Counted from the first letter of the stretch, positions 23,105 through 47,575 are shown. The stretch is 64,000 nt of DNA from Thermoanaerobaculia bacterium (GCA_038245905.1 JBBRRY010000002.1:1-64000), one strand, 5' to 3'. Notes: a model not told the origin generated them from the sequence alone. Made by a program: numbers and translations.

Positions 23105-24493
23105 ATGAATCCCGAGCCGCCCCGGCCTCCCGCCATGGACCGCCTCCTCGAGACGACTGCCGGGAAGGCGCTGGCCGCCCGCCACGGCAGGACGCGCGCG
23201 AAGGAGGCTTTCCGCGAGGCGGCTGCCGCCTGGCGCGAGTCGGAGTCCCCGGACGGCGACGCGGTAGAGGCGATCCTGGCCGCCGCGGCACGCGCCCTCG
23301 AGACGCGTCTTCCGGTCGGGCCGCGCCGCGTGATCAACGCGACGGGGGTCCTCCTGCACACGAATCTGGGCCGTGCCCCGCTCGCCCAGGAAGCCGTCTC
23401 GGCCGCGGGCCGCGCAGCGGGGTTCTCGACGCTCGAATTCGAGCTTGTCGAAGGGACTCGGGGAAGGCGCGGCGATCACGTCCGGCCGCTCCTCCTTGCG
23501 CTCTTCGCGCCCGGACGCGACGACCTCGACACCCTCTCGGTCACGAATACCGCCGCGGCGCTCCTCCTCGCCCTCGACACGCTCGCGAACGGCAGGCCCG
23601 TTGCGGTGTCCCGTGGGGAGCTCGTCGCGATTGGCGGCGATTTCCGCGTGCCGGCGATCCTCGCCAAGAGCGGCGCATCGCTGCACGAGGTCGGCACGAC
23701 GAACAGGACGACGACACGGGACTACGAAGAGGCGCTCGACGCCGGCGCGGCGGCAATTCTCAAGGTCCGGCCCTCGAACTACCGCATCGTCGGCTTCACC
23801 GAAGAGGTCGCGCTCCCCGCCCTCGCGGAGCTCGCGCGCGCCCGGGGAGTCCCGCTGATCTTCGACGCCGGCGCGGCGACGCCTTCGCGCCTCGCCGAGC
23901 ACGGCCTCGCAACCGAGCCCGTGCCGCTCGACGCTCTGGACGCGGGAGCCGACCTCGTCTGCTTCTCGGGCGACAAGCTCCTCGGCGGACCGCAGGTGGG
24001 AATCCTGATCGGAAAGAGAGAGCTCGTCGCGCGCGCCGCCGCAAATCCGCTCGCCCGCGCTCTGCGCCCGGACAAGCTCGTCCTCGGCGCGCTGGCCGCC
24101 ACCCTCGATCTCCATCTCTCGGGCCGCCGCCTCGAGATCCCCTTCTTCCGGATGCTCGAAGCGTCTCTCGTCTCCCTGCGAGACCGCGCGGAAGCGCTCG
24201 CGGAGCGAGCCCGCGCAGCCGGGTTCACGGCGATACCCGTCGACTCCGTCGCGACCGCGGGCGGGGGCGCCGGCACCGAGTCGACGCTGCTCTCGAAGGC
24301 GGTCTCGCTCGCGCATCCGGCAAGGTCCGCGGACCGGCTCGCCGCGGCTCTCCGCGGGAGCGAGCCCCCCGTCGTCGCGCGGATCGAAGAGGGCCGCGTT
24401 CTCGTCGACCTCAGGAGCGTCGCGGAATCCGAGGATGAGGAGCTCGCGCGCGTCCTCTCGGTCCTCGGGGCTCTTCTGCCTCCCGAAGCCTAG
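23105..24493 (+). CDS. selA: L-seryl-tRNA(Sec) selenium transferase
   Basis: VINATGVLLHTNLGRA, SRGELVAIGG.FR, EVGTTNRT, PLP-lysine motif FSGDKLLGGPQ. Confidence 0.95.
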   Translation: MNPEPPRPPAMDRLLETTAGKALAARHGRTRAKEAFREAAAAWRESESPDGDAVEAILAAAARALETRLPVGPRRVINATGVLLHTNLGRAPLAQEAVSAAGRAAGFSTLEFELVEGTRGRRGDHVRPLLLALFAPGRDDLDTLSVTNTAAALLLALDTLANGRPVAVSRGELVAIGGDFRVPAILAKSGASLHEVGTTNRTTTRDYEEALDAGAAAILKVRPSNYRIVGFTEEVALPALAELARARGVPLIFDAGAATPSRLAEHGLATEPVPLDALDAGADLVCFSGDKLLGGPQVGILIGKRELVARAAANPLARALRPDKLVLGALAATLDLHLSGRRLEIPFFRMLEASLVSLRDRAEALAERARAAGFTAIPVDSVATAGGGAGTESTLLSKAVSLAHPARSADRLAAALRGSEPPVVARIEEGRVLVDLRSVAESEDEELARVLSVLGALLPPEA

Positions 24494-25851
24494 ATCCCGA
24501 GCTCCTTCATCCGTTGCGCGAGCTTGCGCAGCGGGACGCCGAGCTCCTCCGACGCATGCGTCTTGTCACCGCCGGTGGCGTCGAGGGCGCGCCGGATGCG
24601 CGCCGCCTCCCCCGCCTCCCGCCATCTCTCCGCGGTCTCCTCGAGAGTTCCGTCCAGGGAAGGATGCCGCGGCTCCGTTTCGCCCGCCACGCCGACGACG
24701 ATGTCCTGAGGCCGGACGACGTCCCCCGAGGCGAGGAGGACGGCACGTTCGACGACGTTGCGGAGCTCGCGCACGTTGCCCGGCCAGTCGTGCGCCGCGA
24801 GCCTCTCGAGCGCGGCCGGCAAGAAAGCGGGCGTCTTCTTCTTCACCTGGCGCGCCGCGGAGACCGCGAACCCGCCGACGAGCGCGGGAATGTCTTCCTT
24901 TCGCGCGCGAAGCGGCGGCAGCCGCACGGGAAAAACGTCCAGCCGGTAGAAGAGATCCTCGCGAAATGTGCCCGCCTTCACGAGGGACGCGAGCTCGCGG
25001 TTCGTCGCGGCGACGATCCGGACGTCCACGGCGATCGGAACCGTGCCGCCCACACGGAGAAACGTGCGTTCCTCGACGGCCCGGAGGAATTTCGCCTGCG
25101 CCGCCGGCGGGAGCTCGCCGATTTCGTCGAGGAAAAGCGTCCCGCCGTCGGCCAGCTCGAAACGCCCGGCCCGCCGTTCGTTCGCGCCCGTGTATGCGCC
25201 GCGCTCGTGTCCGAAGAGCTCGTTCTCGACGAGGCTCTCGGGCAGCGCGGCGACGTTCACGGCGACGAACGGCCCGGGGGCGCGTGGCGAGAGCGCATGC
25301 ACGGCCCGCGCGAACAGCTCCTTGCCGGTCCCCGACTCGCCCGTGAGGAGAACCGTCACGTCGGAAGCCGCGGCCCGGCGAATCCGCTCCAGGGCTTCTG
25401 CTAGGGCCCGTGACGTCCCGACGATTTCCGGCATTCCTCGGAGGCCCGCCTCGGCGGCGAGAAGCCCGTGGGCGACGGCCGCCCGGCGGGCGCGCACGTG
25501 ACGCGCGACGAGAAGGAGGAGGAGATCCGGGTCGACCGGCTTGCTCAGAAAGTCGGCCGCGCCCAGCTTCATCGCGGCGACCGCGGTCTCGACGGTTCCG
25601 AAGCCGGTGAGGACGACGACAGGGAGCGCGGGGTCCGAGGCCGTGGCCGCCTTGAGCACGGCGAGACCGTCGGCACCTGGCATCTTGAAATCCGTGAGGA
25701 CGAGCGTATAGCGCCGCCCCTCGGCCAGGCGGCGCAGCGCTTCCTCGCCGGTCGCGACGGCCTCGACGCTATAGCCCTCGCGGGTCAGCGTCTCTTCGAG
25801 CATCGCGCGGAGGGACTCCCGGTCCTCGACGAGCAGGATCTCCGCGGACAT
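24490..25851 (-). CDS. Sigma54-dependent response regulator (PilR/NtrC family)
   Basis: Receiver domain (LLVED, TDFKMPG, KP), [46 protein letters not shown], Fis-type HTH. Confidence 0.95.
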
Positions 25852-25874
25852 CGAAACGCCGGGATCCGGCCTCG

Positions 25875-26798
25875 TCAGGAGCCCGGAGGCCTGGAAGTCG
25901 TCTTCGGGGCTTCCGAGCCCGGAATGAAGGTTCCGTTCGCCGGATTCCCGGTCGGCGGATTTGCCATGGGTGGGGCGACGTCGCCCCTCGGAACCGTAAT
26001 GTAGGTCGGAGGCGTTGGCGCGGGCGCCGGCGTGGGTGCTGCCTCGGCCTCTCCTTCCGGTTTGGGAGGCGCGCTGCCCGGCGCGCGCGCGCCGGCCGCG
26101 GCGTCGCCTGCCGGCTTGACGGGAATGCGGATCTGCCAGTGAGGAATGTAGCGGTACGACGCCGCCTCCCCTTCGAGCGGGGCGCTCGCCGTGAAGGTCG
26201 ACTTCTCTCCCGGCGCCAGCGTGTCTTTCGCGAGCTGCGCGAATGCCGACGAGAACGTCTTGCCGTCCTTGCCGACGATTTCCACCGTGATGGCAACGGC
26301 CGTCACCTCGCCGGAGCCGCCGTTGACGACGGAGCCCGAGAATGCGTAGCCGTCCTTCGAGCGCGTCACGCTCGTGTTCGCGACGTCGACCCGTCCGTCG
26401 CCGCTGCCTTCCTTCGTCACCGGCGCCTCGTCGCCGATTCCGTGCGCGATCGTGTCGTCCGTCAGGACGACCGCCGCCCGGCGGCCGGTCTTCTGCTTCG
26501 CCGCTTCCGCGGGCGTGAGAGGTTTCAGTGGGTTCGGCGCCGGGAGCGGCTCGGTGGCGGCTACACGCGCTTTCTCGGCCGCTGTTTTCTCGAGGTCGAT
26601 CTCACTGAGGGGGAGGGACAGGAGCACCCCGTCCGTCGTCGTCAGGAGCGCGAGGCTGCCCTTCTGAACGAAGGGCTTCTTCGTGACGATCCGGCGACCG
26701 TCCTTGAGCCAGATTTCGTCGGCCCCCGCAATGCCCGCAATGCCCACGAGGCCCGCGAGGCATGCGAGGACGGCCACCGCCAACATCAGCCGTCGCAT
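25875..26798 (-). CDS. Exported hypothetical protein with FxLYD-like Ig domain
   Basis: GGAGG RBS, signal peptide ending AGA-D, DEIWLKDG N domain, GSVVN.G...V..V.I.V...KDG...LAPGEKSTF, Pro-rich tail. Confidence 0.75.
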   Translation of the reverse strand: MRRLMLAVAVLACLAGLVGIAGIAGADEIWLKDGRRIVTKKPFVQKGSLALLTTTDGVLLSLPLSEIDLEKTAAEKARVAATEPLPAPNPLKPLTPAEAAKQKTGRRAAVVLTDDTIAHGIGDEAPVTKEGSGDGRVDVANTSVTRSKDGYAFSGSVVNGGSGEVTAVAITVEIVGKDGKTFSSAFAQLAKDTLAPGEKSTFTASAPLEGEAASYRYIPHWQIRIPVKPAGDAAAGARAPGSAPPKPEGEAEAAPTPAPAPTPPTYITVPRGDVAPPMANPPTGNPANGTFIPGSEAPKTTSRPPGS

Positions 26799-26826
26799 GG
26801 GACCTCCTTCCAAATCGAGAACAACC

Positions 26827-28014
26827 CTATTTTACACCCGGAGGTGCTCCAGGCGGTGCGCGCGGCTCCGCGTCGCGCAATGTCAGCGCGAACTCTCTCG
26901 ACGCGCGCTCGAACGGAACCCGGCGGCTCTCGTCCGGATCCCACCCGACCGGAGCCGCGCCCGGCCCGGGTGCGGGCGCATTAAGGAGCGGCGGGAATTC
27001 GAGCGGGGGCGGAGGGCCGTCGCCTCGCCTCCAGCGGTGCTCGGCCTTCGCAGTCCACGCGAACCTCAGGGTCCCCGCGGACCTCCGCCCCCAGTCCACC
27101 TGGAATTCCTCGACGTCCTCGCCAAGATGCGCGATCTCCCACCGGCCGTTCCCGGCGAATTCGGCGACGGCCAGAAAGGGATGCGGGAACTTCATGGACG
27201 GCGGATCGTTCGTGGCATCGTAGTCGGGGACCCGGCCGGCGGGCCCGCGCGCGACGAACCAGACGACGTCGTCGAGGAGGCCGCCCGTCACGGGCTCCAG
27301 GAGCGCCCGCACCGCATCCGTCTTTCCGCGAGGGTTCAGGCGCGCCGCCTCCGCGTCGGTGAAGTCGAGACGGATCTCGAGAGCGGCGCCGGCCTCCCGG
27401 GAGCGATTCCACTCGCGGACGAGTGCAACGGCCGAACGGCCCTCCCGATCCGCCACCAGGAAAAACCGTTTCGCGCGCCGCGTCGCCGCCCCCAGCCTTT
27501 CGGCGACGGCGCGAGGCTCGTCCTCGGGGCTCGGGCCCGCGCTGCCAGAGGCGCCAGAGAGAGGCCCAGCCCGGAGCCACACGGACGACGCATCGCCAGT
27601 AATCCAGGCGCTCCCGTCACCCCCGCCCGCACCCCCGGACCCCCCGCGCAACAGCCGGACGGCGAGGAGGGGCGTGCGTATCACCCCACGGACGCCGAAC
27701 TGATCGGTGCCCGCTCGAACGGCGACTGGAGCTCCCGAGACGTCCTTGTAGCCTGTGTCTTCTTCCGCCCTCGTGTTGTCCGCTATCGGGCGAAAGGCCT
27801 CTCCTGGCGGGACGCCCCCCCGGCCCGCTTCCCTCACGTCCCGCGCGAGAGAGCGAGAGGCCGCCTCGAGCACACCGCCGAGGCCGGGATCGTCCTTCTC
27901 GACGACCAGAAGCCTCGTCCTGAGGTCGATGAGCCTGAGAACCGCCACGATGACGATGGCGAGCAGAAGCAGTGTGAGGCCGAGCTCTCGAAGGGAGAAC
28001 CCTCTCGGCCTCAC
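26827..28014 (-). CDS. Second PilW-like minor pilin (divergent)
   Basis: Class III signal RPRG|FSLRE plus hydrophobic helix; segments GTDQ, LVADREGR and LGEDVEEFQV parallel PilW at 34337-35767. Start may be 28014 or 28038. Confidence 0.75.
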   Translation of the reverse strand: MRPRGFSLRELGLTLLLLAIVIVAVLRLIDLRTRLLVVEKDDPGLGGVLEAASRSLARDVREAGRGGVPPGEAFRPIADNTRAEEDTGYKDVSGAPVAVRAGTDQFGVRGVIRTPLLAVRLLRGGSGGAGGGDGSAWITGDASSVWLRAGPLSGASGSAGPSPEDEPRAVAERLGAATRRAKRFFLVADREGRSAVALVREWNRSREAGAALEIRLDFTDAEAARLNPRGKTDAVRALLEPVTGGLLDDVVWFVARGPAGRVPDYDATNDPPSMKFPHPFLAVAEFAGNGRWEIAHLGEDVEEFQVDWGRRSAGTLRFAWTAKAEHRWRRGDGPPPPLEFPPLLNAPAPGPGAAPVGWDPDESRRVPFERASREFALTLRDAEPRAPPGAPPGVK

Positions 28015-28076
28015 GTACGCACCCGGCCCCGCGATCACATTCGAATACTAGCGGGAACTCCGGGATCCTCCAGGGA

Positions 28077-31000: not shown

Positions 31001-33656
31001 TCGACGCGAACGTCATGAGGCCCCAGTTCACGACGTCCTTCGTCGTGCCGACGACGTCCCGATAGACGTTCTTCGTCCAGGAGGGCTGTTTGCCGCCTCC
31101 AAACAGGATCACGGTTGGATCGCCCGCCTTGGGTACCTGGGTCTGGCCTCCGATTACGGCGCCGCCCTTTGTCTGCCAGCCCGCCGGGAAGGACAGAGGC
31201 GTCCCCGTCGTGCCGGGGATGGAGTTTCCACTGACTTCCGTCGTCTCGTCCATCAGCGTGGGAACCAGGCCGTTGAGCCCGAGGGGCGGACCCGGGTCCG
31301 GTCCATAGACGATGTCGTTGTTCGGAGGAATCCCGTAGCCATAGTTCAACGTCCAGGCCCAGCCGTCGTACGTCGCGGCCGTTCCGTAGGGCGCGGCCGC
31401 GTAGACGGTCGGAGGGTTCGCCAGGTCGGAGTACTTGCGGGAGCCCGTCGTCGGGACCCCCGGGTGATAAAGCGGCGGGTGGGCGGGATCGTAGTTCGAG
31501 AACAGGAACGGCGCGTTCGGATCGGGCCAGTCCCATGTTCCCCTGGAGTAATAGATTCCGGGCTTTTCACCCTCGACATCCGTCGAGGTCGGCAACGCAC
31601 AGGCCGGCAATCCGACGCCGCAGTCGTGATTGTAGGCTCCCACCGTGGGCTGTGACGGAGCCGTGTACTTCCATGCGCCCGCTGTCTCGCTGTGCAGGAT
31701 CGGATCCGGCCAATCGTTCGCGCTCGCCCCGCCGTTCGGCGCCTTGTAGTCCGTGTAGATCGTCACGGAGTCACCCAGGACGTTCTTGAGGATCGCGAGC
31801 CGCGACGGCTGCTCCCACCGAAGCGCGTAGCGCCAGCGGTGGCATCCCGCGCCCGCGGCGGGCGGCACGGGCGTGGGCGTGGCGACGGCCATGAGAGCCG
31901 CGATTCCCATCGAAACGCCATGGGGCTCGCGCGGGAGGAAGGCCTCGAAAGAATCCGAATCTGAAGCGAGGTCCGCTGGCCCGTGACCTGACCCGCTCCA
32001 CGCAACCATCGCCACCGGCTCCGGCAGGCCACGAGGCCGCGCCGAGGCCTGGACCGGCTGCCGTTCGTCCGGCTTCACGAGCGGGTTTCTCGGGATGTTG
32101 AGGTCGTTGATCTTGACGGTCGGCGTGCGCGTCGGCGTGCCCGTGGGCGTCCAAGACGGCGTGTACGTGAACGTGGGCGTCGTCGTGGGCGTCACCGTCG
32201 GGGTCGACGTGGGCGTCGTCGTCGGCGTCGGCGTAAGAGTCGGCGTATTCGTCGGCGTCACGCTCGGCGTCGAAGTCGGCGTCACGGTCAACGTGGGCGT
32301 CGACGTGGGCGTCATCGAGGGCGTAAGGGTCGGCGTGACCGAGGGCGTGTTCGTGGGCGTCGGGGAAATCGTCGGAGTCCACGTCGGCGTGTAGGTCGGC
32401 GTGACCGTGGGCGTATACGTCGGCGTCCCCGTCCACGTCGGCGTGTTCGAAGGAGTCGACGTCGGCGTCACGGTGGGCGTCGGCGTGACCGTGGGCGTGG
32501 TGGTCGTGGTCGAGGTCGGCGTCACGGTCGGCGTCACGGTCGGCGTCGGCGTCCCGGTCGGCGTGTCCGTCGGCGTCCCGGTCGGCGTGACCGTGGGCGT
32601 CCGCGTCGCCGTGCCGGTCGGCGTCGACGTGGGCGTCACCGTGGAAGTCGGCGTCACGGTCGGCGTACTCGTGGGCGTGTCCGTCACCGTGAAGGTCGGC
32701 GTCACCGTGGCCGTATCCGTGGGCAGATTGGTCGGCGTGCTCGTCACCGTGGCCGTCCGCGTCGGCGTGTGCGTCGGCGTGCGCGTGGGCGTTCTCGTCC
32801 GCGTCGACGTTCTCGTCGGTGTCCGGGTCGGCGTGTTCGAGGCCGTCGACGTCGGCGTGACCGTGGGCGTGATCGTCGGCGTCGGTGTGATCGTCGGCGT
32901 TCTCGAAGCCGTGTAGGTCGGCGTGACGGTGGGCGTGATCGTCGGCGTCGGCGTTCGGGTCGGCGTGTCCGAGGCCGTCGAGGTGGGCGTCAGGGTAGGC
33001 GTGTTCGTCGAGGTCCCCGTCGGCGTCACGCTTGGGGTCGAGGTCGGCGTCGGCGTCAGCGACGGCGTGTTCGTCACCGTGAAGGTCGGCGTGACCGTCG
33101 GCGTGGACGAGGGGGTGCTCGAGGGCGTATTCGTGGGCGTCACGGTCAGCGTGGGCGTGACCGTCGGCGTTGAGGTCGGCGTCTCGGACGCCGTCGAGGT
33201 CGGCGTCAGCGTCAGCGTGGGCGTGAACGTCAGCGAGGGCGTCAGCGTGGGCGTCTCGGTAGGCGTCACGGTGGGCGTGATCGTTTCCGTGGACGTTGGC
33301 GTCACCGTTGGCGTCACCGTCGGCGTTTCCGTCGGCGTGACCGTCGGCGTATTGGTCGGGCCCGGGTTGCCGTCGAGGCATGTCACGCTCCAGACGAGCC
33401 GGCCGACGGAATCCTCGTCCTCGACGAGGGAGTGTCCGGTCACGTCCCAGCGCATCGAGCCGCTGACGTCCTGGAGGATGAGGAGGTTCGAGCGGAGAAG
33501 CTGCGCGGTGAGCTGGCGAAGGGGGTCGAACCCTTCCGTTCGGATCGCACCCTGCACAGTGCCCGCCCCGCCAAAGGCCATGGCGAAGAGAAGCAGGAAG
33601 GCGCACCCTTTCCTCACCGAGACCGGAAGAGCGACGGAGCGGCGAGGTTTCGTCAT
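28077..33656 (-). CDS. pilY1: PilY1/PilC-type pilus tip adhesin with vWA domain and Thr/Pro insertion
   Basis: Signal peptide; vWA motifs [33 protein letters not shown]; propeller motifs [27 protein letters not shown]...DGAE, GDTNG; C-terminal WWKE; follows pilX. Start ATG 33656 or TTG 33671. Confidence 0.9.
32115..33359 (-). repeat. Coding low-complexity repeat (Thr-Pro-Thr-X)n, about 415 aa, within pilY1
   Basis: Near-strict Thr/Ser at every second residue; DNA is degenerate ACGCCGACN/ACGCCCACG repeats; includes 22-aa higher-order units. Confidence 0.97.
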
Positions 33657-33680
33657 GGCTTTCTCATCCAATCACGGCTC

Positions 33681-34340
33681 TCAAGGGCCGATTGCGGCGG
33701 TCGCCGACCCGGTAATGGTGTTCGTTCCACCTTGGTTCACGTTTTTCTGTGCTCCGGTCGATCCCCCGCCGGTCGTCAGGAGGAGCTGCTCCTCGACGAT
33801 CTTCGTCACGACGACACCCGCCGCGAGCCGCACGGTTCCGACCGAAATGAGGTTCACGATGTTGTCGTTGTCGACGGTGTCGGTGCCCGTCGCGTCATCC
33901 ACGTTGTTGCGAAGGTAGAGCGAGTATGTGACCCGATCCACGACGGAGACCCCTGCGGGTGGCGGGATCGGGACGTCGAGGTATGCCCGGCGATCCAACA
34001 GGAGGCAGCCGGCGTTCGAAATGGTGGAAAGGTCCAGCACCTGCGCGTCGTATCCCCCGCCGGGCACCTTCAGAGTCGGTGCCGAGCGGGCCGCAAGAAT
34101 GAGCGACAGAGTCTGGACGCCACAGGCCGCCGGGGCGAGGTTGATGACTTCGGTCAGGAGGGCCTCGCCGCGCCTGAGGCCCGCGTCCGCCGCGTAGAAG
34201 CCCGCCTTCGAGATGCGCGTGTTGCCCGACAGGCGGTCCTCCATGGACGTGAAGTACGCGATGCCGACTCCCACGATCGTCAGGACGAGGAGAACGAGGA
34301 TCACCGAGATGAGGGCGCTGCCGCGTGTTCTCATCGTCAT
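33681..34340 (-). CDS. pilX: Minor pilin PilX
   Basis: RG|SALISVILVLLVLTIVG with no Glu5, as expected for PilX; FYAADAGL; ATGA overlap with pilW. Confidence 0.85.
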   Translation of the reverse strand: MTMRTRGSALISVILVLLVLTIVGVGIAYFTSMEDRLSGNTRISKAGFYAADAGLRRGEALLTEVINLAPAACGVQTLSLILAARSAPTLKVPGGGYDAQVLDLSTISNAGCLLLDRRAYLDVPIPPPAGVSVVDRVTYSLYLRNNVDDATGTDTVDNDNIVNLISVGTVRLAAGVVVTKIVEEQLLLTTGGGSTGAQKNVNQGGTNTITGSATAAIGP

Positions 34341-35767: not shown

Positions 35768-36311
35768 AGTCCACTCTCTTGCCGCCGCCGTTCGTGCCGA
35801 TTCCCAGGTAACGCGAATCGCCGGCAGCGGCGGCGGCGGTCGTCGGCACTGCCGAGACCGTGATCACCCAGACGGCGACGCCGCTGTTCAGCGTCTGGTT
35901 CGCGTCTTGCGCGATCCTGTAGCTGATCTGGTACGGGCCGTTCGACGTTTCCATCACGTTCGCTCCCGCAGGACCCCAGAACGCCCACCCGGAATCGCCG
36001 CTGAGGTACGGAAGATTCCTGGTGACCGCACCGAGCGCGGGGATGTCGGTGGTGCCGATCACGGCGTCCGTCGCAAGACCGCGCGACGTCACGTAGTAGT
36101 ACCAGCGGATGTTCTCGACGACCTGCTGGCACTTGAAGAGCAGCTGCGTGCGCGCCGCCGAGCCCTTGTTGACGATGAGCGACACCGAGAACATCTGGAG
36201 AATGCCCACGAGGACGAGCGCCATGATGCTCATGGCGAGGAGCACCTCGACGAAGCTGCTGCCACGGCAGGAGCGGAAGCGGCGGTGCATGCGGAAGTTA
36301 CGCTCAGCCAT
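35745..36311 (-). CDS. pilV: Minor pilin PilV
   Basis: RG|SSFVEVLLAMSIMALVLVG (Glu5 present, Ser1); position in the fimT-pilV-pilW-pilX-pilY1 order. Confidence 0.8.
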   Translation of the reverse strand: MAERNFRMHRRFRSCRGSSFVEVLLAMSIMALVLVGILQMFSVSLIVNKGSAARTQLLFKCQQVVENIRWYYYVTSRGLATDAVIGTTDIPALGAVTRNLPYLSGDSGWAFWGPAGANVMETSNGPYQISYRIAQDANQTLNSGVAVWVITVSAVPTTAAAAAGDSRYLGIGTNGGGKRVDYVAQFTQ

Positions 36312-37122
36312 TTTGATCCACCCACGCAGGCGTAGAGTCCTTGATCTGTTTGACGACGCGAACGCTCCAGACGGGGTTGATGTTGAGAATGTACCGCGTC
36401 GGAGGCTGGAAGGTCTGGTTGACGACGTCCACGTGCGTGAAGACGAGCGTGGCCGGCCCCGCGATCTGCCGGCCCGTCGAAGCGGGGAGGCCGGCGTTCG
36501 GAGCGAAGGGCTTCGGGCCGACCGCCATCGCGCGCCCCTGGAGGTCGCACATGATGACGCGCGGAGCGGTCCAGAGCAGGGCGTTGTCCGACCAGAGCGT
36601 CGACTGGATCTCGGCCGTGTTCAAGACGGACAGGCAGAACTCCTGGTCCACACCGGAGATCCCCAGCGTTCCGGAGAGCCCCTTCACGATGATGTTGTAC
36701 TGGTCGATGAGGAGATCGGGGCATGCGGCCGTCGGCACCCTCTGAAAACATTCGAGGACTTCGTCTCCCGTGGACGACAAGACGCCGCCGGGAGCGCTCT
36801 GGTCCCCGACCAGGTAGATGGGGAGAGTACGGGAGGCTCCCGCGATGACGAGAGGACCCACCTGCACGAACACCGGGTTGCCGCGGCGGAACATCTCCGA
36901 GTACGCGCGCTGGAGGAGGACCTTGATGTCCGAGGAGGCGCTCTGGAGCTTCTGGCGTTTCCAGGCCCTCGAGATCTCGCCTCCGCCGATGACGGCGATG
37001 ATGCCGAGGATCATGATGACCACCAACAGCTCGACGAGGCTGAATCCCCTCCGGCCGCGCGGACGGGCCGAGCACGGGATCGGACTCAGGAGCAAAAGCG
37101 GCCGGTTCTTGCGGTTCTTCAT
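36304..37122 (-). CDS. fimT: Minor pilin FimT/FimU (GspH-like)
   Basis: RG|FSLVELLVVIMILGIIAVIG; first gene of the minor pilin operon; ATG at 37122. Confidence 0.82.
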   Translation of the reverse strand: MKNRKNRPLLLLSPIPCSARPRGRRGFSLVELLVVIMILGIIAVIGGGEISRAWKRQKLQSASSDIKVLLQRAYSEMFRRGNPVFVQVGPLVIAGASRTLPIYLVGDQSAPGGVLSSTGDEVLECFQRVPTAACPDLLIDQYNIIVKGLSGTLGISGVDQEFCLSVLNTAEIQSTLWSDNALLWTAPRVIMCDLQGRAMAVGPKPFAPNAGLPASTGRQIAGPATLVFTHVDVVNQTFQPPTRYILNINPVWSVRVVKQIKDSTPAWVDQNG

Positions 37123-37143
37123 CGAGAAAGTCCGTCCCTTAAA

Positions 37144-37160
37144 AGCGAGGTTCGTGCCCA
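37144..37160 (-). promoter_or_regulatory. Putative sigma54 -24/-12 promoter of the fimT-pilY1 operon
   Basis: Minus strand TGGGCACGAACCTCGCT = GG-N10-GC with a GGCACG core, about 23 nt upstream of the ATG. Confidence 0.65.
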
Positions 37161-37346
37161 ACCTCTTTCTTGGAAGCCAAATGATTCCTGGAAAGCATGT
37201 TACACCCGTCGAGAGGCAAGGTCATCACCGCCATCCCACGCACGAACAGACACTTTTCGTAACACTCAATGCCCGGCGGCGGACGATTCCCGCGCAAGGC
37301 GCGAACCGGCGCGCTCGGCTACGATAGAGAACATGGAGCTTCGCTG

Positions 37347-39872: not shown

Positions 39873-41020
39873 GCGAGGCGCCTCCCGTCCGTGCCGCCGA
39901 GACGGGCGCGAACCGGATCGACACCCTCCTCCGGATCGTCGTCGACAAGAAGGCCTCGGACCTACACCTCGCCGTGGGCTCGCCGCCGATGGTCCGCGTG
40001 GACGGCGATCTCATACGGCTGAAGTGGCGCACGCTGACCGAGGAGGAGTACGAGAGCCTCGTCGCACCGATCGCCCCGGAGAAGCCCTTCAAGGACTGGA
40101 AGGAGACGGGCGACGCCGACTTCGGATACTCGATGGGAAAGATCGCCCGCTTCCGTGTGAACCTGTTCCGGCAGGAGCACGGGTCCGGCGCCGTACTCCG
40201 CATGATCCCGCCGAAGGTCCTCACGATCGAGGAGCTCGGACTCCCGCCCATCGTCGCGAACGTCGCGCGTGTTTCGCGCGGCCTCGTGCTCGTGACCGGC
40301 CCCACGGGATCCGGCAAGTCCACGACGCTCGCGGCCCTCCTCGACTGGATCAACCGCACCCGCGCATCGCACATCGTGACGATCGAGGACCCCGTCGAGT
40401 TCATCCACGCGCCCCTGAAGTCGCTCATCTCGCACCGCGAGCTCGGTTTCGACACGCCGACGTTCGCGGGCGCGCTCAAGGCCGCGCTTCGCGAGGACCC
40501 CGACGTCGTCCTCGTCGGCGAGCTTCGCGACCTCGAGACGATGTCGATGGCGTTGCAGGCCGCCGAGACCGGGCTCCTCGTCTTCGGCACGCTGCACACG
40601 AATTCCGCCGCGAAGGCGGTGGACCGCCTCATCGACAGCTTCCCCGCCGAGGAGCAGGAGCAGGTTCGAACCGTCCTGGCCGAAGTGCTGAAGTCGGTCG
40701 TCGCCCAGGTGCTGCTGAAGAGGAAGGGCGGCGGACGCGTGCCCGCGTTCGAGGTCCTCCGCGGCTCCTCCGCGCTCTCGAACAGCATCCGCGAAGGCAA
40801 GACGAACATGATCTCGACCCTCATCCAGACGGGCCGCAGCGGTGGGATGATCGGAATGGACCAGTACCTCGCGGATCTCGTCGCGGCAGCCACCGTCGAA
40901 CCTGAGGAGGCGCTCGAAAAGGCCCTGGACAAGGAACAGTTCAAGGGACTCGTCGAGAAGCGGAAAACCGCGGCAAACCGCCCGCCGGCGCCCGCGGCGG
41001 GCGCCGCCCTCGAACCCTGA
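39869..41020 (+). CDS. pilT: Type IV pilus retraction ATPase PilT
   Basis: ATGA overlap; ASDLHL, RFRVNLF, GPTGSGKSTT, EDPVE, LREDPDVVLVGELRD, GTLHT. Confidence 0.93.
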   Translation: MSEAPPVRAAETGANRIDTLLRIVVDKKASDLHLAVGSPPMVRVDGDLIRLKWRTLTEEEYESLVAPIAPEKPFKDWKETGDADFGYSMGKIARFRVNLFRQEHGSGAVLRMIPPKVLTIEELGLPPIVANVARVSRGLVLVTGPTGSGKSTTLAALLDWINRTRASHIVTIEDPVEFIHAPLKSLISHRELGFDTPTFAGALKAALREDPDVVLVGELRDLETMSMALQAAETGLLVFGTLHTNSAAKAVDRLIDSFPAEEQEQVRTVLAEVLKSVVAQVLLKRKGGGRVPAFEVLRGSSALSNSIREGKTNMISTLIQTGRSGGMIGMDQYLADLVAAATVEPEEALEKALDKEQFKGLVEKRKTAANRPPAPAAGAALEP

Positions 41021-41048
41021 GAGCAACTCCCGATCGGAGAGGGAAGGC

Positions 41049-42821: not shown

Positions 42822-43996
42822 GGCAGGAGCCTCGGAACCCAGGGCAGCCCCCCGGCGATCGCGTCCCAGGCCGGGCGACCGGCCACGAACGCCACGAGCT
42901 CACCGCAGGCGAGAAAGACACCGAACGGCACGTCGACGCGCGCGAGAAGCACGAGGAGCCCGCCCGGCGTCGCCTCGGCACGCGCCGCGAGAACCCGGAA
43001 GAAGTCGGCGCCGTCGTCGAGCGCGAGGCGCCCGTGCGCGGCCCGCTCGCCGCGCCGGGCCCGCGTCCTCGCGAGCCGGACGAACGCGAGGAGCCGGCCG
43101 GCCGTCGGGACGTCCGCCGCGAGCCGATTTCCTTCGGCTGCGGCCCCCGGAATCTCGCGGAAGCGTGCCGAGGCCGAAAGGACGCGGCCGTCCTCCCCGA
43201 TGAGAAGCCCGGAACGTGCCGCCACCGCGCGAGCGGCCGAGGACGACGCGCGCGCGCGCCGCGCTTCGAGGGACCAGCGGAGCGCGCGCAGGAGCGTCGC
43301 GCCGCCCGCCACGACCGTGCCCGCGAGAGAGGCGAAAAAGAGCGTGAGAAAGACGCCCGCGGGTCCCGTGAACGCTCCCGCCATCGCGAGCATCTTCACG
43401 TCGCCTGCGCCCATGCCTTCCTGCCCACGCAGCCGTGCGTAGGCGCGGCGAACCCCTTCGAGAAAGAGCGCACCCAGGAGCGCCCCGAGGACCGCCTCGG
43501 CGAGGTGGCTCCCGGCCACCGCCCCCGCGAGATCGCGCCCCGAAGCCGGCGCGATGCGGTCGCGGAGCGCCGCGAGGACGAGGCCAAGCGCGAGAGTCCC
43601 GAGAGTCACCTCGTCGGGCAGCGTGCGCGCCTCGAGGTCGGTGGCCGCGAGGATCACCGACGCCGCTGCGAGAAAGGACGCCGAGGCCGCGACGAGCGTG
43701 GGCCCGTAGAGGAAGCCTGCCGCGAGAAAAAGCACCGCCACGAGCAGCTCGACGAGCGGGTAGCGGAGCGGGATGCGTGCGTCGCAGCGGCGGCAACGGC
43801 CGCGGAGAAGGAGCCAGGACACGACGGGCACGTTGTCGAAGAACGCGACGGGCTCCCCGCAGGACGGGCAATGCGAACCCGGGTAGACGACCGAAAGCCC
43901 GCGCGGCAGCCGGTGGATGCATACGTTCGCGAAGGAGCCCACGATCGCGCCCGTCGCGAAGAAGAGGCCCAGGAGGACGCCGTCGACGGCGCTCAC
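42818..43996 (-). CDS. pilD: Prepilin peptidase/N-methyltransferase with about 120-aa insertion
   Basis: GSFANVCIHRLP, SHCPSC...RGRCRRC, RYPLVE, catalytic D in TDLEARTLPD and GMGAGDVK, PFGVFL. Confidence 0.93.
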   Translation of the reverse strand: MSAVDGVLLGLFFATGAIVGSFANVCIHRLPRGLSVVYPGSHCPSCGEPVAFFDNVPVVSWLLLRGRCRRCDARIPLRYPLVELLVAVLFLAAGFLYGPTLVAASASFLAAASVILAATDLEARTLPDEVTLGTLALGLVLAALRDRIAPASGRDLAGAVAGSHLAEAVLGALLGALFLEGVRRAYARLRGQEGMGAGDVKMLAMAGAFTGPAGVFLTLFFASLAGTVVAGGATLLRALRWSLEARRARASSSAARAVAARSGLLIGEDGRVLSASARFREIPGAAAEGNRLAADVPTAGRLLAFVRLARTRARRGERAAHGRLALDDGADFFRVLAARAEATPGGLLVLLARVDVPFGVFLACGELVAFVAGRPAWDAIAGGLPWVPRLLP

Positions 43997-46290
43997 GCGC
44001 GACTCTTTCCCGCGAGAACGAGGCCGAGGAGCACGACGAGTGACGCGATCGAAATCGCCGCGCCCACGCGGAAAGAGATCGGGCGGTAGACGAGCTCGAG
44101 GCGGTGGGCGCCCGCCGGCAGGAGCACCGCCGAAAGGGCGAGGTCCGCCCGGCGGAGCGCGACGCCCTGCCCGTCCACGGACGCCTCCCAGCCGCGATCG
44201 TACGCGCGCGTGAGGACGAGGAAGCCCGCCTCGGAAGCCTCGACGTCGACCCTCAGGAGCTCGGGCGCATCCGACACGACGCGCGCGACCGAGAAGCTCC
44301 TCCCCGAGCGCGAAAGTGGAAGGGGTCCGGCGGGAGGAGCGACGAGGACGACAGCCTCCGGGTCGAAATCCGGCGTGGCAAGGGCATGAAAGGCGTCGTC
44401 GTCATCCGCCTCCCGCGCCGACCGCGCGAAAAAAACGCGCCCCTGCGGCCGCGAGAGGGCGTAGAGGAAGACGCCGCCGCCCTGCCGCTCGAGCCGGGCT
44501 CCGGGAATTGCCGCCGGAAACGGCGACACGATATGCCGCACGTCCGCTAGCGAGAGAATCGTGCCCGCGTTTCCCCCCGAGAGCGCGGCGCCGAGGAGGC
44601 GCCTGCGCCAGGGGTTCCCGATGGGCGACGGCGACGCCGCAGAGGAAAGGCCGAGGGGCAGGTTCGTGTAGCCCGAGAGTGCGGCCCGCGCCCGCGCCGC
44701 GGCCTCGCCTCCCCACTCACCGCCCGTCTCGCGGCCGAGCGCGAGGAGTGCCGCCCCGTCCGAGGCGAAGGGAAAAACTCGACCCGGCGCTCCGGTCAGT
44801 CCCGCGACGAGAGGCGGCGAACCCTCGAGCCTGGCGGGCGCGAAGAGGCCGGCCGTCGCGCCGGCGAGAGGAAGCGCCACGAGCACGATGAGAAGGGCGC
44901 CCGAACGCGCGGGACCCGGCCGCCCGGTCATGCGAACGGACGCGAGCAGAATCCCGCCGGCAGCCGCAGCGATAAGCGTCGCCCGGGCCGTCACACCCGT
45001 TGCTCGCCCGGCCGCGAGCCCCGCGCACAGAAGTGCGACCGTGATCGCCGCGAAGACGAAGAGGGGTGCGAGACGGGCCGCGGCCGGCGCCGACACGCGG
45101 GCGCCGTCTTCCGGTTCGAGACTCTTTGGCCACGTGAATATCCGTCCGTATCGCCAGCCGTCGAGGCCGGCGCCCGCGAGACCCGCGAGAGCGAACAGCG
45201 TGAGGACGAACCAGCGCGCGGGGAACCTTATGCCGCGCGCGATTCCCAGATCCCAAAGAACCGGGAGTAGCCCTCCCCGCGCCCCAAGAGCGAGCAAGAG
45301 GCCGACGAGCGCGAGAATCGCAAGCCCCGCGAGCAGCCGCGGCCGCGCCGCCAACCCAGCGCCCGCCCCCGCCGCGAGGACGAGCACGAGCGGAGACAGC
45401 GCGAGCGTCGCGAGGTAGCCGCCCCGCCCAGGCTCCGGACGGAGCGTCAGGGCGTCGGGCGGCGGCAGGACGAGATCGAGAAAATCCGACGATCCGACGG
45501 GACGTGCGAGCGCCTCGGCGCGGGTTACGCCCAGCAGCCGTCCGGAGGACGCGGCGTATTCGAAGAAGGGAAGCGCCGTGGCCGCCGCCAGGGTCGCGCC
45601 GAGAAGAAGCCCTCCAAGGAGCCGCACGAACGGCCTGCCCGAATCGACTGTTCCGGCCGGCTCCTCGCGCCGCGTGAAGAATGCAAGAAGGACCGCACCC
45701 GCCGCGCCCGCGACCGCGACGGACGGCTCCCCGCCGAGGAACGAGAGAGCGAAGGCAACCGCGAGCCCCGCAGGCGAGCCGCCCGCTGCCGCGTAACGCG
45801 CCGCGGCGAAGAGCCAGGGGAGGAACGCCGCCGTTTCGAAGTTGTTGTACACGAGCGCGAGCGACAGGAACGCACCGCCCCCCACGTACGCCGACGCGCC
45901 GAGGAGCGCCCCCGCGCGCGAGGCGCCGAGGCCGAACAACCAGACCGCCATTCCGGACGAGGCGATCGCAAGATGGATGGCGATGCTCAGGAGCGGCCCC
46001 CAGATGCCAGGGAGCAGGAACGGAAAGTCCACCGGGTTGAGTACGCCGGACTGGAGCTGAGCGATCCACGGCTCTCCACACCCCGACAGGGGATTCCAGA
46101 GAGGCATGCCGGAGGCCCAGCGCACGGCTGTGTAGGCCTTCATCGGCCAGAAGAAATCGGCGAGGTCTCCGCGCGCGGGCAGCCCGCCCGAAAACACGCT
46201 CGGCACCAGGAATACCGCCGCGAACGCGAGCCCCATGGCGCCGCCCAGGAGCGCCGTCCGTCCCGTCGTCCCGCGGCCTTGCACCGTCAC
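43993..46290 (-). CDS. YfhO-family membrane glycosyltransferase (GT-C)
   Basis: GDL..FF.P, PLWNPLSGCGEP......QSGVLNP, RFPARW, C-terminal GFLVL...YD.GWEASVDG....AV.LPAGAHRLELVYRP plus last TM. Start 46290 (GTG) or 46236 (ATG). Confidence 0.85.
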   Translation of the reverse strand: MTVQGRGTTGRTALLGGAMGLAFAAVFLVPSVFSGGLPARGDLADFFWPMKAYTAVRWASGMPLWNPLSGCGEPWIAQLQSGVLNPVDFPFLLPGIWGPLLSIAIHLAIASSGMAVWLFGLGASRAGALLGASAYVGGGAFLSLALVYNNFETAAFLPWLFAAARYAAAGGSPAGLAVAFALSFLGGEPSVAVAGAAGAVLLAFFTRREEPAGTVDSGRPFVRLLGGLLLGATLAAATALPFFEYAASSGRLLGVTRAEALARPVGSSDFLDLVLPPPDALTLRPEPGRGGYLATLALSPLVLVLAAGAGAGLAARPRLLAGLAILALVGLLLALGARGGLLPVLWDLGIARGIRFPARWFVLTLFALAGLAGAGLDGWRYGRIFTWPKSLEPEDGARVSAPAAARLAPLFVFAAITVALLCAGLAAGRATGVTARATLIAAAAGGILLASVRMTGRPGPARSGALLIVLVALPLAGATAGLFAPARLEGSPPLVAGLTGAPGRVFPFASDGAALLALGRETGGEWGGEAAARARAALSGYTNLPLGLSSAASPSPIGNPWRRRLLGAALSGGNAGTILSLADVRHIVSPFPAAIPGARLERQGGGVFLYALSRPQGRVFFARSAREADDDDAFHALATPDFDPEAVVLVAPPAGPLPLSRSGRSFSVARVVSDAPELLRVDVEASEAGFLVLTRAYDRGWEASVDGQGVALRRADLALSAVLLPAGAHRLELVYRPISFRVGAAISIASLVVLLGLVLAGKSRA

Positions 46291-46304
46291 GATTCTAGGC
46301 CCGG

Positions 46305-46334
46305 AAAAGAAAAGAGCCCCCAAGAGGGGGCTCT
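46305..46334 (-). terminator. Rho-independent terminator after the major pilin gene
   Basis: Minus strand AGAGCCCCC-TCTT-GGGGGCTCT followed by TTTCTTTT, about 27 nt after the pilin stop. Confidence 0.88.
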
Positions 46335-46360
46335 CGAATCGGGACTCAGCGGGAGGACGA

Positions 46361-46867
46361 TTACCGCTGCGCGCCCGCGGGGTATTGGACGAACTGGCCG
46401 TTGAAGAAGACGATGTCGTCGTTGAAGTTCGTCGTCTCACCGCCGACGTAGGTACCCGGTGCGCCGTCTTTGCCGTTGGACGCCATGGCATAGGCCTGCG
46501 GGTTGGCCCCGCTGTTCCCGTACAGGAAGTACGAGCTCCAACCGTCCACGACGGGCAGGAGGCGGATGTAGGTCGGCGCGACCTGTTTGTTGAATCCGCT
46601 GTTGGGGGCGCCGAACGACGTCGTCGGGAGACCCATACCCGAAGGAAGGGTCACCGCGGCCGCGGCCGGATAGTGGTTGAAATCGACGGCATACGCCTCG
46701 GCGGCCGTGCCCGCGGAGCGCAAGTCGGCCATCGTCCTCTTCTGCTTGGCGCGCTGGATGGCGTTGAGCAGGTTCGGAATGGCGATCGCGACGATGATGC
46801 CGATGATCGCGACGACGATCAAGAGCTCGATCAGCGTGAAGCCTTTGTTTTGGTTCCTCTTCTTCAT
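46361..46867 (-). CDS. pilA: Major type IV pilin (GspG-like head), copy 1
   Basis: AGGAGG RBS; MKKRNQNKG|FTLIELLIVVAIIGIIVAIAIP; DGW and S.G.DG GspG-like motifs; own promoter and terminator. Confidence 0.85.
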   Translation of the reverse strand: MKKRNQNKGFTLIELLIVVAIIGIIVAIAIPNLLNAIQRAKQKRTMADLRSAGTAAEAYAVDFNHYPAAAAVTLPSGMGLPTTSFGAPNSGFNKQVAPTYIRLLPVVDGWSSYFLYGNSGANPQAYAMASNGKDGAPGTYVGGETTNFNDDIVFFNGQFVQYPAGAQR

Positions 46868-46898
46868 GAAAATAACCCTCCTAGTTCCCTGCTCTGCT

Positions 46899-46914
46899 TT
46901 CAAGACGCGTGCCG
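46899..46914 (-). promoter_or_regulatory. Putative sigma54-like promoter (GG-N10-GA) of pilin 1
   Basis: Minus strand CGGCACGCGTCTTGAA, about 32 nt upstream of the ATG. Confidence 0.65.
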
Positions 46915-47041
46915 TAGCCCTCCGAGGCTGAAACGGGCTCGTTCGGCAAGGATTTCGGCCCGAACAAGGGCGCCACGACGAATTTTTGTCAGAGAAGGCG
47001 GGAAGGGCGGGCCACCGTTTGTCGGGCCGCGGATGCTTCTC

Positions 47042-47527
47042 TCATCGCTGCGCGCCGTCGGGAAACTGCACGAACGTCCCGTCCACGAGAATGATGTCGG
47101 CGTTGAAATTCGTCGTCGCACCACCCAGGGGGCTCGTTTCCGGGACGCCGTCCGCACCCGTGGAGCAGAGGGCGAAGTCGCTCCGCGACACGCTCGTCCC
47201 GTAGAGGAAAAACGAGCTCCATCCGTCCACCAGCGGCACCCCGCGGATGTAGGTCGGACCGAGCGAGCCGGAGATCGCCCCGATCGTGCCGGTGGGCAGC
47301 GAAAGCCCCGACGGCAGAGAGAATGCCGCCGCGGCTGGATAGAAATTCTGGTCTGTGGCGTATGCCTCGATGGCGGTCGCGATCGTCTTCATGTCGCCCA
47401 TCGAACGCTTCTGTTTCGCGCGCTGAATCGCGTTGATCATGTTCACGATCGCGATGGCGGCGATGATGCCGATGATCGCCACGACGATCAATAGCTCGAT
47501 GAGAGTGAATCCCCGGCGTCTCGGCAT
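47042..47527 (-). CDS. Type IV pilin (GspG-like head), copy 2
   Basis: GAGGGAG RBS; MPRRRG|FTLIELLIVVAIIGII; co-linear with pilin 1 through the shared C terminus GAQR. Confidence 0.9.
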   Translation of the reverse strand: MPRRRGFTLIELLIVVAIIGIIAAIAIVNMINAIQRAKQKRSMGDMKTIATAIEAYATDQNFYPAAAAFSLPSGLSLPTGTIGAISGSLGPTYIRGVPLVDGWSSFFLYGTSVSRSDFALCSTGADGVPETSPLGGATTNFNADIILVDGTFVQFPDGAQR

Positions 47528-47559
47528 GCTCCCTCGTAACCCGAATTCCCGGAAAAGCA

Positions 47560-47575
47560 CTCAAGAAGCGTGCCT
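47560..47575 (-). promoter_or_regulatory. Putative sigma54-like promoter (GG-N10-GA) of pilin 2
   Basis: Minus strand AGGCACGCTTCTTGAG, about 33 nt upstream of the ATG; 13 of 14 core bases match the pilin 1 element. Confidence 0.65.

Follow-up and report, generated by a model that had tools for sequence, protein, structure and literature searches.

A type IV pilus locus with lineage-specific add-ons in an uncultured acidobacterium, and its probable place in a conventional type IVa pilus

Few bacterial machines have been studied as thoroughly as type IV pili, and a locus in which several pilus genes carry unusual additional domains raises a simple question: does it encode a system of its own, or is it the decorated part of a familiar one? 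The locus considered here, region 24490-47575, belongs to a 64,000-nucleotide stretch of DNA, called the window in what follows, which is contig C2:1-64000 of a 3.8-Mb Thermoanaerobaculia metagenome-assembled genome (MAG), labeled G000, that is 96% complete and distributed over 113 contigs. An earlier reading of the window, the original prediction, saw in it a locus for type IV pili in an acidobacterium, which our analysis confirms, and proposed that it was an undescribed system, which is not borne out: the genome contains a standard type IVa pilus core, and the add-ons appear to be of different ages. The locus is one of three loci of the type IVa pilus machine, not a separate system, and we consider it likely that it is the accessory part of a complete type IVa pilus of the conventional kind, one that bears lineage-specific add-ons of different age.

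The window has a G+C content of about 69%. Genes were called as open reading frames (ORFs) with a high third-position G+C, then checked by Pfam and NCBIfam; no RNA gene was detected in the window, either with Rfam or by a tRNA scan. The region contains 15 genes in three transcription blocks (Table 1). The first block, on the minus strand from 47574 to 41049, holds pilin 1, pilin 2, a hairpin, a GT-C gene of the YfhO family, pilD and a sensor kinase gene; the YfhO stop and the pilD start share 4 bases, as do the pilD stop and the kinase start. The second block, on the plus strand, consists of a pilT gene fused to HEAT repeats followed by a plain pilT, with an ATGA overlap. The third, again on the minus strand, runs over 12.7 kb from 37158 to 24490 and holds a fimT/gspH-like gene, pilV, pilW, pilX, a PilY1 gene, two genes called orf403 and orf312, and a regulator gene: from fimT through the regulator, its genes overlap or are separated by gaps of at most 38 bases.

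The first step is to ask where the rest of the machine is. The original prediction had stated that pilB, pilC and pilMNOPQ are absent from the window and must lie elsewhere, and this is what profile-family searches of all G000 contigs reveal. Contig C38 carries PilM_2, PilN, PilO, PilP and a secretin with an AMIN domain, in the order pilM-N-O-P-Q; contig C60 carries pilT, pilC (T2SSF, 220 bits), a kinase with a 6TM_PilS domain and a sigma54 regulator; and contig C28 starts with pilB (T2SSE, 464 bits, plus MshEN). In genome G011, of the same genus, pilB-PIN-pilT-pilC-pilS-pilR are contiguous on a single contig. Since pilMNOPQ is on C38, pilT-pilC-pilS-pilR on C60 and pilB on C28, the genome holds a full type IVa pilus.

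The same inventory yields a few further observations. A PIN-domain gene at C28:1775-2173, between pilB and pilT, has a counterpart in the same place in G011, with 73% identity. The segment C28:11795-21331 codes for a Secretin_N protein, a GspF-like protein, a GspE-like protein with MshEN, an 819-residue secretin with TPR repeats, a 155-residue prepilin-type protein, and three ORFs without a Pfam family. Matches to the core of the T2SSE family (profile positions 134-283) also occur at C5:66024-66500 and C14:45229-45708, in frames of 495 and 407 amino acids.

The second step is to ask how old the add-ons are. The close relatives of G000 are MAGs deposited as Thermoanaerobaculia or Acidobacteriota; their families are coded f1 (the host family), f2 and f3 (sister families), f5, f8 and f11, and their genomes by G followed by three digits. 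We used 40 relatives for the comparison at the level of the order (24 of the same genus and 16 from elsewhere in the order), 151 sampled genomes for the class, and, for the phylum outside the class, a sample of 229. The comparison of synteny suggested by the original prediction gives the following: in the genus, synteny extends over the entire locus (9 loci), and four other genera of f1 have the same gene order, a full-length PilD and a Thr/Pro-rich PilY1. The block pilins-YfhO-pilD-(kinase)-pilT-HEATpilT is kept across the order.

The individual add-ons reach to various depths. The full-length HEAT-PilT is found in one piece in 19 of the 24 same-genus genomes, as contig-end pieces in the other 5, and in 15 of the 16 other genomes of the order. 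In the class survey, 75 of the 151 genomes have the HEAT domain (f1 15/15, f2 15/18, f3 3/3, f5 28/35, f8 10/20), and all five of the distant matches that were checked combine HEAT with T2SSE in 825-899 amino acids. Outside the class, where the comparison covered the HEAT half of the protein, 12 of the 229 genomes have matches, 7 of them with open frames of 823-907 amino acids. The insert of PilD is present in 15 of the 151 class genomes, all in f1 (14/15 plus G000), the sole miss in f1 being an assembly of 480 contigs. A PilY1 orthologue exists in 15/15 genomes of f1, and orthologues of its C-terminal domain are found, at E ≤ 1e-20, in f1, f8 and f11, not in f2 or f3. The PilY1 proteins of f2 have 1834-2087 amino acids, with 22-23% Thr and Pro; on PF05567, the two that were scanned reach 53.5 and 76.7 bits. 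Two genomes flagged as unpublished, G025 (f2) and G030 (f3), are counted in these tallies; without both, the HEAT counts become 14/17 in f2 and 2/2 in f3, and the conclusions are the same. Default tblastn missed or broke up Thr/Pro-rich orthologues in several genus loci; with composition correction off, full-length matches to the Thr/Pro-rich PilY1 were obtained in the four genus loci that were re-run.

Judging from these sequence comparisons, the add-ons differ in age: HEAT-PilT is class-wide, the Thr/Pro-rich PilY1 belongs to two families of the order, and the PilD insert to one family. Of the proposal that the add-ons go together, one half stands, since all three occur together throughout f1; the other half falls, for they are not one package, with depths as different as 75/151 and 15/151. 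Because these phylogenetic depths differ, the add-ons were neither acquired nor selected as a unit.

The third step concerns the two-component genes of the window. A kinase and a sigma54 regulator are indeed separated by 15 kb, each in a transcription unit of its own, but the kinase is not the PilS-like protein that it was thought to be. The identification with PilS was rejected: the 6TM_PilS domain was not found in the window kinase, its sole genomic match being on C60 (65.8 bits), where the kinase that carries it adjoins pilC and a sigma54 regulator and forms with the latter the true, adjacent PilS/PilR pair. The best NCBIfam match of the window kinase is AtoS, under the cut-off. The window regulator combines REC, sigma54 AAA+ and Fis helix-turn-helix domains, an architecture common to many NtrC-type regulators; it reaches no NCBIfam equivalog cut-off, and shares 41% identity with its PilR-like counterpart on C60. 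The sigma54-contact loop reads GAYTGA in the former and GAFTGA in the latter. Since the kinase and the regulator each come last in a transcription unit of the pilus, and since both are kept in f1 and f2, we infer that they may form a second, split two-component pair dedicated to the pilus.

With these elements in hand, we can weigh the best of the alternatives, namely that the add-ons constitute one integrated, undescribed, glycosylated contact pilus, distinct from type IVa pili and controlled at transcription, prepilin processing and retraction. The co-occurrence of all add-ons with full synteny across f1 (9 genus loci, 4 other genera), the f1 counts of the class survey (HEAT 15/15, PilD insert 14/15, PilY1 orthologue 15/15), the presence of a sensor-type fold on PilD and of an extra domain on PilT, and the fact that, judging by literature listings, no paper was found on PAS-PilD, HEAT-PilT or YfhO-pilin architectures, are all in agreement with it. 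However, its parts differ in phylogenetic depth, the core machinery is the standard type IVa set, and the kinase is not PilS while a canonical PilSR pair exists elsewhere in the genome. We thus consider an integrated system unlikely.

A second alternative comes from the pilins themselves. The two share 60% identity, score 38-40 bits on N_methyl, and both have a short class III leader with Gly-1, Phe+1 and Glu+5. As they also match T2SSG (PF08334) and, at 70-75 bits, the GspG model TIGR01710, they could be pseudopilins, and the locus could serve a pseudopilus similar to that of type II secretion systems (T2SS), or a non-retractile fibre; the minor pilins, which resemble the GspH-K set in their order, and the GspE/GspF/secretin cluster on C28 go in the same direction. 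Nevertheless, the GspG scores are under the cut-off, the locus itself encodes two PilT-family retraction ATPases, a PilX_N protein and a PilY1-family protein, the cluster on C28 has its own prepilin-type gene, and the genome has PilMNOPQ with an AMIN-domain secretin. Such a pseudopilus or non-retractile fibre is, in our opinion, very improbable.

We now turn to the add-ons of the conventional pilus, beginning with PilD, whose PAS-like form is the most surprising piece of the locus. The protein matches PF06750 (A24_N_bact) at 117 bits and PF01478 (Peptidase_A24) at 66 bits, and residues D120 and G196-x-G-D199 (the GxGD motif) are invariant in 30/30 PilD sequences. It has 392 amino acids, against 263-266 in the sister families, and the difference in size corresponds to residues ~238-355, a segment of 118 residues, missing in the sister families, that lies between the last two membrane helices. 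No Pfam family matches the C-terminal 160 residues of PilD at E ≤ 10, and no PAS or Cache profile match is precomputed on the 120 relatives listed. At E ≤ 0.001 the insert has 123 homologous proteins, almost all of ~390 amino acids among the 120 listed. Its conservation at the protein level extends over 5 genera and over 123 protein clusters, with identities as low as 46%, and residues W241, P283, G289, R307, R312, R323, F333-L336 and D355 are invariant; it has no conserved Cys or His.

An AlphaFold2 (AF2) model of PilD, computed from the 30-sequence alignment, has a predicted local distance difference test score (pLDDT) of 84, and the insert appears in it as a compact domain with pLDDT 79-95. 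Its modelled topology is beta-beta-alpha-alpha-beta-beta-beta: a five-stranded antiparallel sheet with flanking helices. When the insert is compared with PYP, PAS and Cache structures by VIA-align, the Z scores are 8.0-8.9, with a root-mean-square deviation (rmsd) of 3.1-3.5 Å over ~105 residues. Foldseek, given the PilD model, finds no match at E ≤ 0.001, and its weak matches (E ≥ 0.17) are mostly PAS domains. A wide search, independent of Foldseek, through 48,161 chains ranks FlaK first: 47 of the next 49 rows are of PAS/Cache/LOV/PYP type, with Z from 8.6 to 6.1, on residues ~230-356. The match to FlaK (PDB 3S0X) involves the membrane core of PilD, with Z 12.1 and an rmsd of 3.9 Å over 175 residues, and with Z 11.5 in the wide search. 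The PAS-like insert announced by the original prediction is thus present, PAS, PYP and Cache domains being the best structural matches of the model, and the likeness holds at the level of the predicted fold. By analogy with GxGD proteases, the loop that precedes the conserved PFG motif would be cytoplasmic, and the insert itself is Arg-rich; several of the top matches, however, are periplasmic Cache domains.

The hypothesis that the insert is a functionless segment, mobile repeat or expansion, tolerated in frame in a variable loop, which would suit its lack of a Pfam family and its absence from the sister families, has a very small chance of being correct, and its mobile-repeat version is rejected, given that the insert has a single match in G000, is conserved as a protein across 5 genera, contains invariant residues and folds into a compact model with confidence.

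The second add-on is the fusion of PilT with HEAT repeats: it is real, the gene is intact, and it is paired with a plain pilT. The protein scores 87 bits on HEAT_2, 155 bits on T2SSE and 443 bits on TIGR01420, for a cut-off of 319, and in its translation the Walker A, Walker B and His box motifs are intact. In the AF2 model (pLDDT 78), residues 10-466 form an all-helical solenoid and residues 467-486 an unstructured linker, after which comes the PilT ATPase. The relatives of this protein have 837-843 amino acids. The plain PilT scores 436 bits on TIGR01420, and is 49% identical to the ATPase half of its neighbor; a third copy of the PilT family is found on contig C60. An ORF of 354 amino acids at 39962-41026 on the minus strand, without a Pfam family, was dropped in favor of the plus-strand pilT after an analysis of third-position G+C (GC3) by frame, and of the translations.

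The third add-on is carried by the PilY1 protein, for which a Thr/Pro stalk of 415 residues had been announced; the stretch exists, and measures 416 residues. It spans residues 104-519, with 195 Thr, 90 Pro and 34 Ser (47%, 22% and 8%, or 77% together), and its DNA contains imperfect tandem repeats of 6-66 bases. The protein is laid out as a signal peptide, the motif D68-x-S-x-S, which resembles a metal ion-dependent adhesion site (MIDAS), the Thr/Pro stretch, a remainder similar to a von Willebrand factor A (vWA) domain, and a C-terminal domain of PilY1 type. The stretch starts 31 residues past D68-x-S-x-S, and vWA-like sequence resumes beyond it: as the MIDAS motif comes before and vWA-like sequence after, the stretch seems to have been inserted within a vWA-like region. 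The whole protein, of 1864 amino acids, matches nothing in Pfam or NCBIfam, and no PDB sequence at E ≤ 10. Its C-terminal 807 residues have 515 homologues; of the 35 that were scanned, 21 match PF05567, the family of the PilY1 beta-propeller, at E ≤ 0.001, 15 are above the cut-off of that family, and 6 match VWA or VWA_2. The identity of PilY1 is thus a transitive one, obtained through homologues and through the position after pilX. On the strand opposite the repeats, at 32095-33918(+), there are three ORFs of 99, 171 and 331 amino acids, with GC3 0.86-0.92, which are most likely an artefact of the codon composition of the repeats.

The PilY1 gene is followed by orf403, which was described as a second PilW, rightly so according to its N-terminus and its alignments. 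It has the prepilin N-terminus RG/FSLRE (the slash marks the end of the leader), and is 26% identical (E 6e-16) to the PilW of G029, in sister family f2, a protein that scores 43.4 bits on PF16074. BLASTP finds no similarity between orf403 and the 476-residue pilin in pilW position; the latter has the motif VEDLQVAY in common with the PilW of G029. The product of the next gene, orf312, belongs to no Pfam family; its N-terminus resembles a signal peptide, it has an FxLYD domain, and its tail is rich in Pro and Ala. Its homologues occupy the same place across the order, and the regulator is kept beside it in the sister families. In four genomes of family f3 (G028, G034, G036 and G038), the orf312 homologue is directly beside HEAT-pilT, and this family has no kinase between pilD and pilT; G036 and G038 have a weaker homologue of the regulator (39-42% identity), close to which the kinase is matched in part; ~2 kb past the regulator, G028 and G038 have a pilin similar to orf403.

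The GT-C gene that had been placed between the pilins and pilD is a gene of the YfhO family: it scores 40.9 bits on PF09586, for a cut-off of 28.5, over its C-terminal 70 residues only, and in the atlas 30/30 of the nearest named clusters are YfhO, with a score of 0.99. The protein also has weak matches, of 27-35 bits, to PgfM1 and PgfM2 (NF047589, NF047590). Throughout the order, the gene keeps this position, with the pilins on one side and pilD on the other.

The pilin genes, finally, have the matching, non-canonical promoter motifs that had been noticed. The pattern GGCACG-N4-TTGA has two matches in the 64 kb, located 33-34 bases before each pilin ATG; in a shuffle control, 5 of 100 shuffles have at least 2 matches. 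It is present before both pilins in 8/8 of the genus loci that include them. No GGCACG-type site, with this stricter pattern, precedes the pilins of the sister families; in nine loci of f2 and f3, 17 of the 18 major-pilin genes have TGG-N8-TTGC at 47-99 bases upstream, against a background of 0.005 per 150 bases. This conservation, in 8/8 genus loci and before 17/18 sister pilin genes, backs the sigma54 control of the pilins proposed by the original prediction. Besides rpoN, genome G000 has 13 canonical sites of the form GGCACG-N4-TTGC. At the pilin sites, position -24 has GG but -12 has GA, and the minor-pilin site is of the form GG...GC: given the 13 canonical TTGC sites of the genome and the TTGC of the sister pilins, the A at -12 would be a deviation at the level of the genus.

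The site before the minor-pilin operon, GGCACGAACCTCGC, is of class GGCACG-N4-TYGC, which occurs twice in the window, a number that chance alone would give. We take it as a promoter motif because of its positional conservation, not of its count: it is kept before fimT in 9/9 genus loci and in 4/6 loci of f2. The second match, GGCACGGTGTTCGC at 57469-57482(-), is inside a pseudouridine synthase gene and is probably due to chance.

Several of these results pull away from the conventional pilus with add-ons that we favor. The pilins are near GspG, with 75 and 70 bits for a TIGR01710 cut-off of 88.85, and a second cluster similar to those of T2SS or type IV pili exists on C28. The -12 element of the pilin promoters is GA, against GC in the 13 canonical sites of the genome. 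The match of the 1864-residue protein to PF05567 is below the cut-off (E 0.089, 12.1 against 28.1 bits, residues ~1303-1451), and no PDB sequence matches the protein. The basis of the PAS assignment is a modelled structure, the Foldseek values of E ≥ 0.17 are weak, and Z scores of 8-9 are only just above the range that the tool calls common; furthermore, the insert could lie on either side of the membrane, and residues 197-248 are modelled as one unbroken helix. The pairing of the kinase with the regulator comes from gene position only. Lastly, the organism is an uncultured MAG, and the evidence on its locus is genomic.

How could the conventional pilus work with its added parts? The sigma54 holoenzyme and an enhancer-binding regulator, either the local one or PilR on C60, would transcribe the two pilin genes and the minor-pilin operon from the motifs described above. 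PilD, by its family assignment, would cleave and methylate the prepilins. By analogy with known pili, FimT, PilV, PilW, PilX, the second PilW-like pilin and PilY1 would prime assembly and sit at the tip, where the Thr/Pro stretch could keep the head of PilY1 off the fibre. PilB, PilC and PilMNOPQ would build the fibre, PilT and HEAT-PilT would retract it, and the YfhO GT-C enzyme may O-glycosylate the pilins, the Thr/Pro stretch, or both, outside the cytoplasm. The PAS-like domain would modulate or localise PilD, and the HEAT arm would tether or regulate one retraction motor. Glycosylation, and regulation at three levels, as put forward in the original prediction, are conjectural.

It is tempting to go one step further, and to conjecture that prepilin maturation in f1 is a sensory checkpoint, in which the PAS/Cache-like domain of PilD, placed close to the active site, gates leader cleavage or N-methylation, and in which the trigger would be a small molecule, the redox state or a partner protein. 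We hold this to be possible, although doubtful. If true, the pilus would be tunable after transcription both at assembly and, through the HEAT-armed PilT, at retraction. Control at prepilin maturation is not known from any type IV filament system. So far, PilD has been regarded as a constitutive housekeeping enzyme, PilT as a bare hexameric motor. The locus offers two testable cases of regulatory or scaffolding domains: a folded sensor-type domain in PilD, kept by a whole family of abundant uncultured acidobacteria, and, on a PilT paralogue, a HEAT arm of 460 residues, kept by a whole class. There is even a natural control, as the sister families share the locus but have a PilD that lacks the insert. 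Pending a cultured or heterologous system, the practical value is modest.

Table 1. Features of the pilus locus, in coordinates of the window.
Feature	Position	Strand	Basis
NtrC-type sigma54 response regulator	24490..25851	-	Sigma54_activat 231 bits, Response_reg 93 bits, HTH_8 (Pfam)
orf312, secreted protein	25875..26813	-	NCBIfam FxLYD_dom, 27.2 bits (cut-off 23)
orf403, second PilW-like minor pilin	26827..28038	-	Prepilin N-terminus; alignment to G029 PilW
PilY1-family tip protein, 1864 aa	28077..33671	-	Transitive homology; position after pilX
Thr/Pro-rich stretch of PilY1 (residues 104-519)	32115..33362	-	Composition
pilX, minor pilin	33681..34340	-	Pfam PilX_N, 50 bits
Minor pilin in pilW position, 476 aa	34337..35767	-	N_methyl motif; VEDLQVAY motif; between pilV and pilX
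Minor pilin in pilV position, 188 aa	35745..36311	-	N_methyl E 0.00045, just under cut-off; position
FimT/GspH-like minor pilin	36304..37122 (ORF extends to 37161; likely ATG 37122)	-	N_methyl 32 bits, TIGR02532, weak GspH match
Sigma54-type motif GGCACGAACCTCGC before minor-pilin operon	37145..37158	-	Positional conservation
HEAT-PilT, 841 aa	37347..39872 (ORF 37269-39872; likely start 37347)	+	Pfam, NCBIfam
pilT, 383 aa	39869..41020	+	GC3 frame analysis, translation, TIGR01420
Sensor histidine kinase with two membrane helices	41049..42821	-	Pfam: HisKA, HATPase and PAS domains
PilD prepilin peptidase/N-methyltransferase, 392 aa	42818..43996	-	A24_N_bact, Peptidase_A24
PAS/Cache-like insert of PilD (residues ~238-355)	42932..43285	-	Predicted structure
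YfhO-family GT-C membrane glycosyltransferase	43993..46290 (start uncertain, 46236-46290)	-	PF09586
Terminator-like hairpin after pilin 2 gene	46312..46335	-	10-bp stem, 7 GC pairs, T-rich tail
Pilin 2, 168 aa	46361..46867	-	N_methyl, T2SSG; leader MKKRNQNKG/FTLIE
Sigma54-type motif GGCACGCGTCTTGA	46900..46913	-	33 bases upstream of pilin 2 ATG
Pilin 1, 161 aa	47042..47527	-	N_methyl, T2SSG; leader MPRRRG/FTLIE
Sigma54-type motif GGCACGCTTCTTGA	47561..47574	-	34 bases upstream of pilin 1 ATG

Housekeeping genes border the locus at both ends: at one, selA and TldD/PmbA; at the other, an ATP-grasp ligase and malQ. The regulator gene and selA (selenocysteine synthase), on opposite strands, have stops that overlap by 4 bases, at 24490-24493, and the two genes also adjoin in family f2. 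The ATP-grasp ligase, at 47619-49154(+), diverges from pilin 1 across a gap of 91 bases, and is syntenic with malQ throughout the genus; it combines an IQCH-like ATP-grasp with PGM1_C, and its best NCBIfam match is BesA, with 174 bits for a cut-off of 750.

It remains to compare the locus with known systems. The type IVa set of Pseudomonas aeruginosa comprises pilA/pilBCD, pilSR, pilTU, fimS-algR-fimU-pilVWXY1Y2E and pilMNOPQ. The parts list, the dispersion over several loci, the tandem pair of PilT-family genes and the sigma54 pilin promoter are the same here, and so is the order of the minor pilins, a GspH-like protein followed by V, W, X, Y1 and a further pilin, with a two-component system attached. 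In contrast with P. aeruginosa, the window has a PilD with a PAS/Cache-like domain, a PilT paralogue with a 460-residue HEAT arm, a PilY1 with a Thr/Pro stretch past the MIDAS, two major pilin genes, a YfhO GT-C gene instead of genes of TfpO/TfpW type, and, as the regulator beside the minor pilins, a sigma54 activator rather than a LytTR protein of AlgR type. In Myxococcus xanthus there is a pilB-pilT-pilC-pilS-pilR-pilA cluster, and the minor-pilin/PilY1 clusters are separate. The order pilB-pilT-pilC-pilS-pilR is found again on C28/C60 and in G011, with a separate minor-pilin/PilY1 locus; here, however, pilA and pilD are outside the pilB-R cluster, and the HEAT, PAS-like and Thr/Pro parts come in addition. 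The model of M. xanthus PilA (NF041775) matches the N-terminus of the window pilins at 54-59 bits, over residues 13-79 only, while the full-length scores are far under the cut-off of 400 bits.

Two of the enzymes have parallels of their own. TfpW of P. aeruginosa, a GT-C protein that is not of the YfhO family, arabinosylates pilin. Like TfpW, and like PgfM1/PgfM2 of Streptococcus mutans, the YfhO protein of the window is a polytopic GT-C enzyme whose gene is beside that of its presumed pilin substrate, in a family that has protein-glycosylating members; its matches to PgfM1/PgfM2 are nonetheless far under their cut-offs (1400-1500 bits). As for PilD, it shares with FlaK (3S0X) the membrane core and both catalytic Asp, but where FlaK and the PilD proteins of the sister families have a short loop, the PilD of the window has a domain of 118 residues with a predicted PAS/Cache-like fold.

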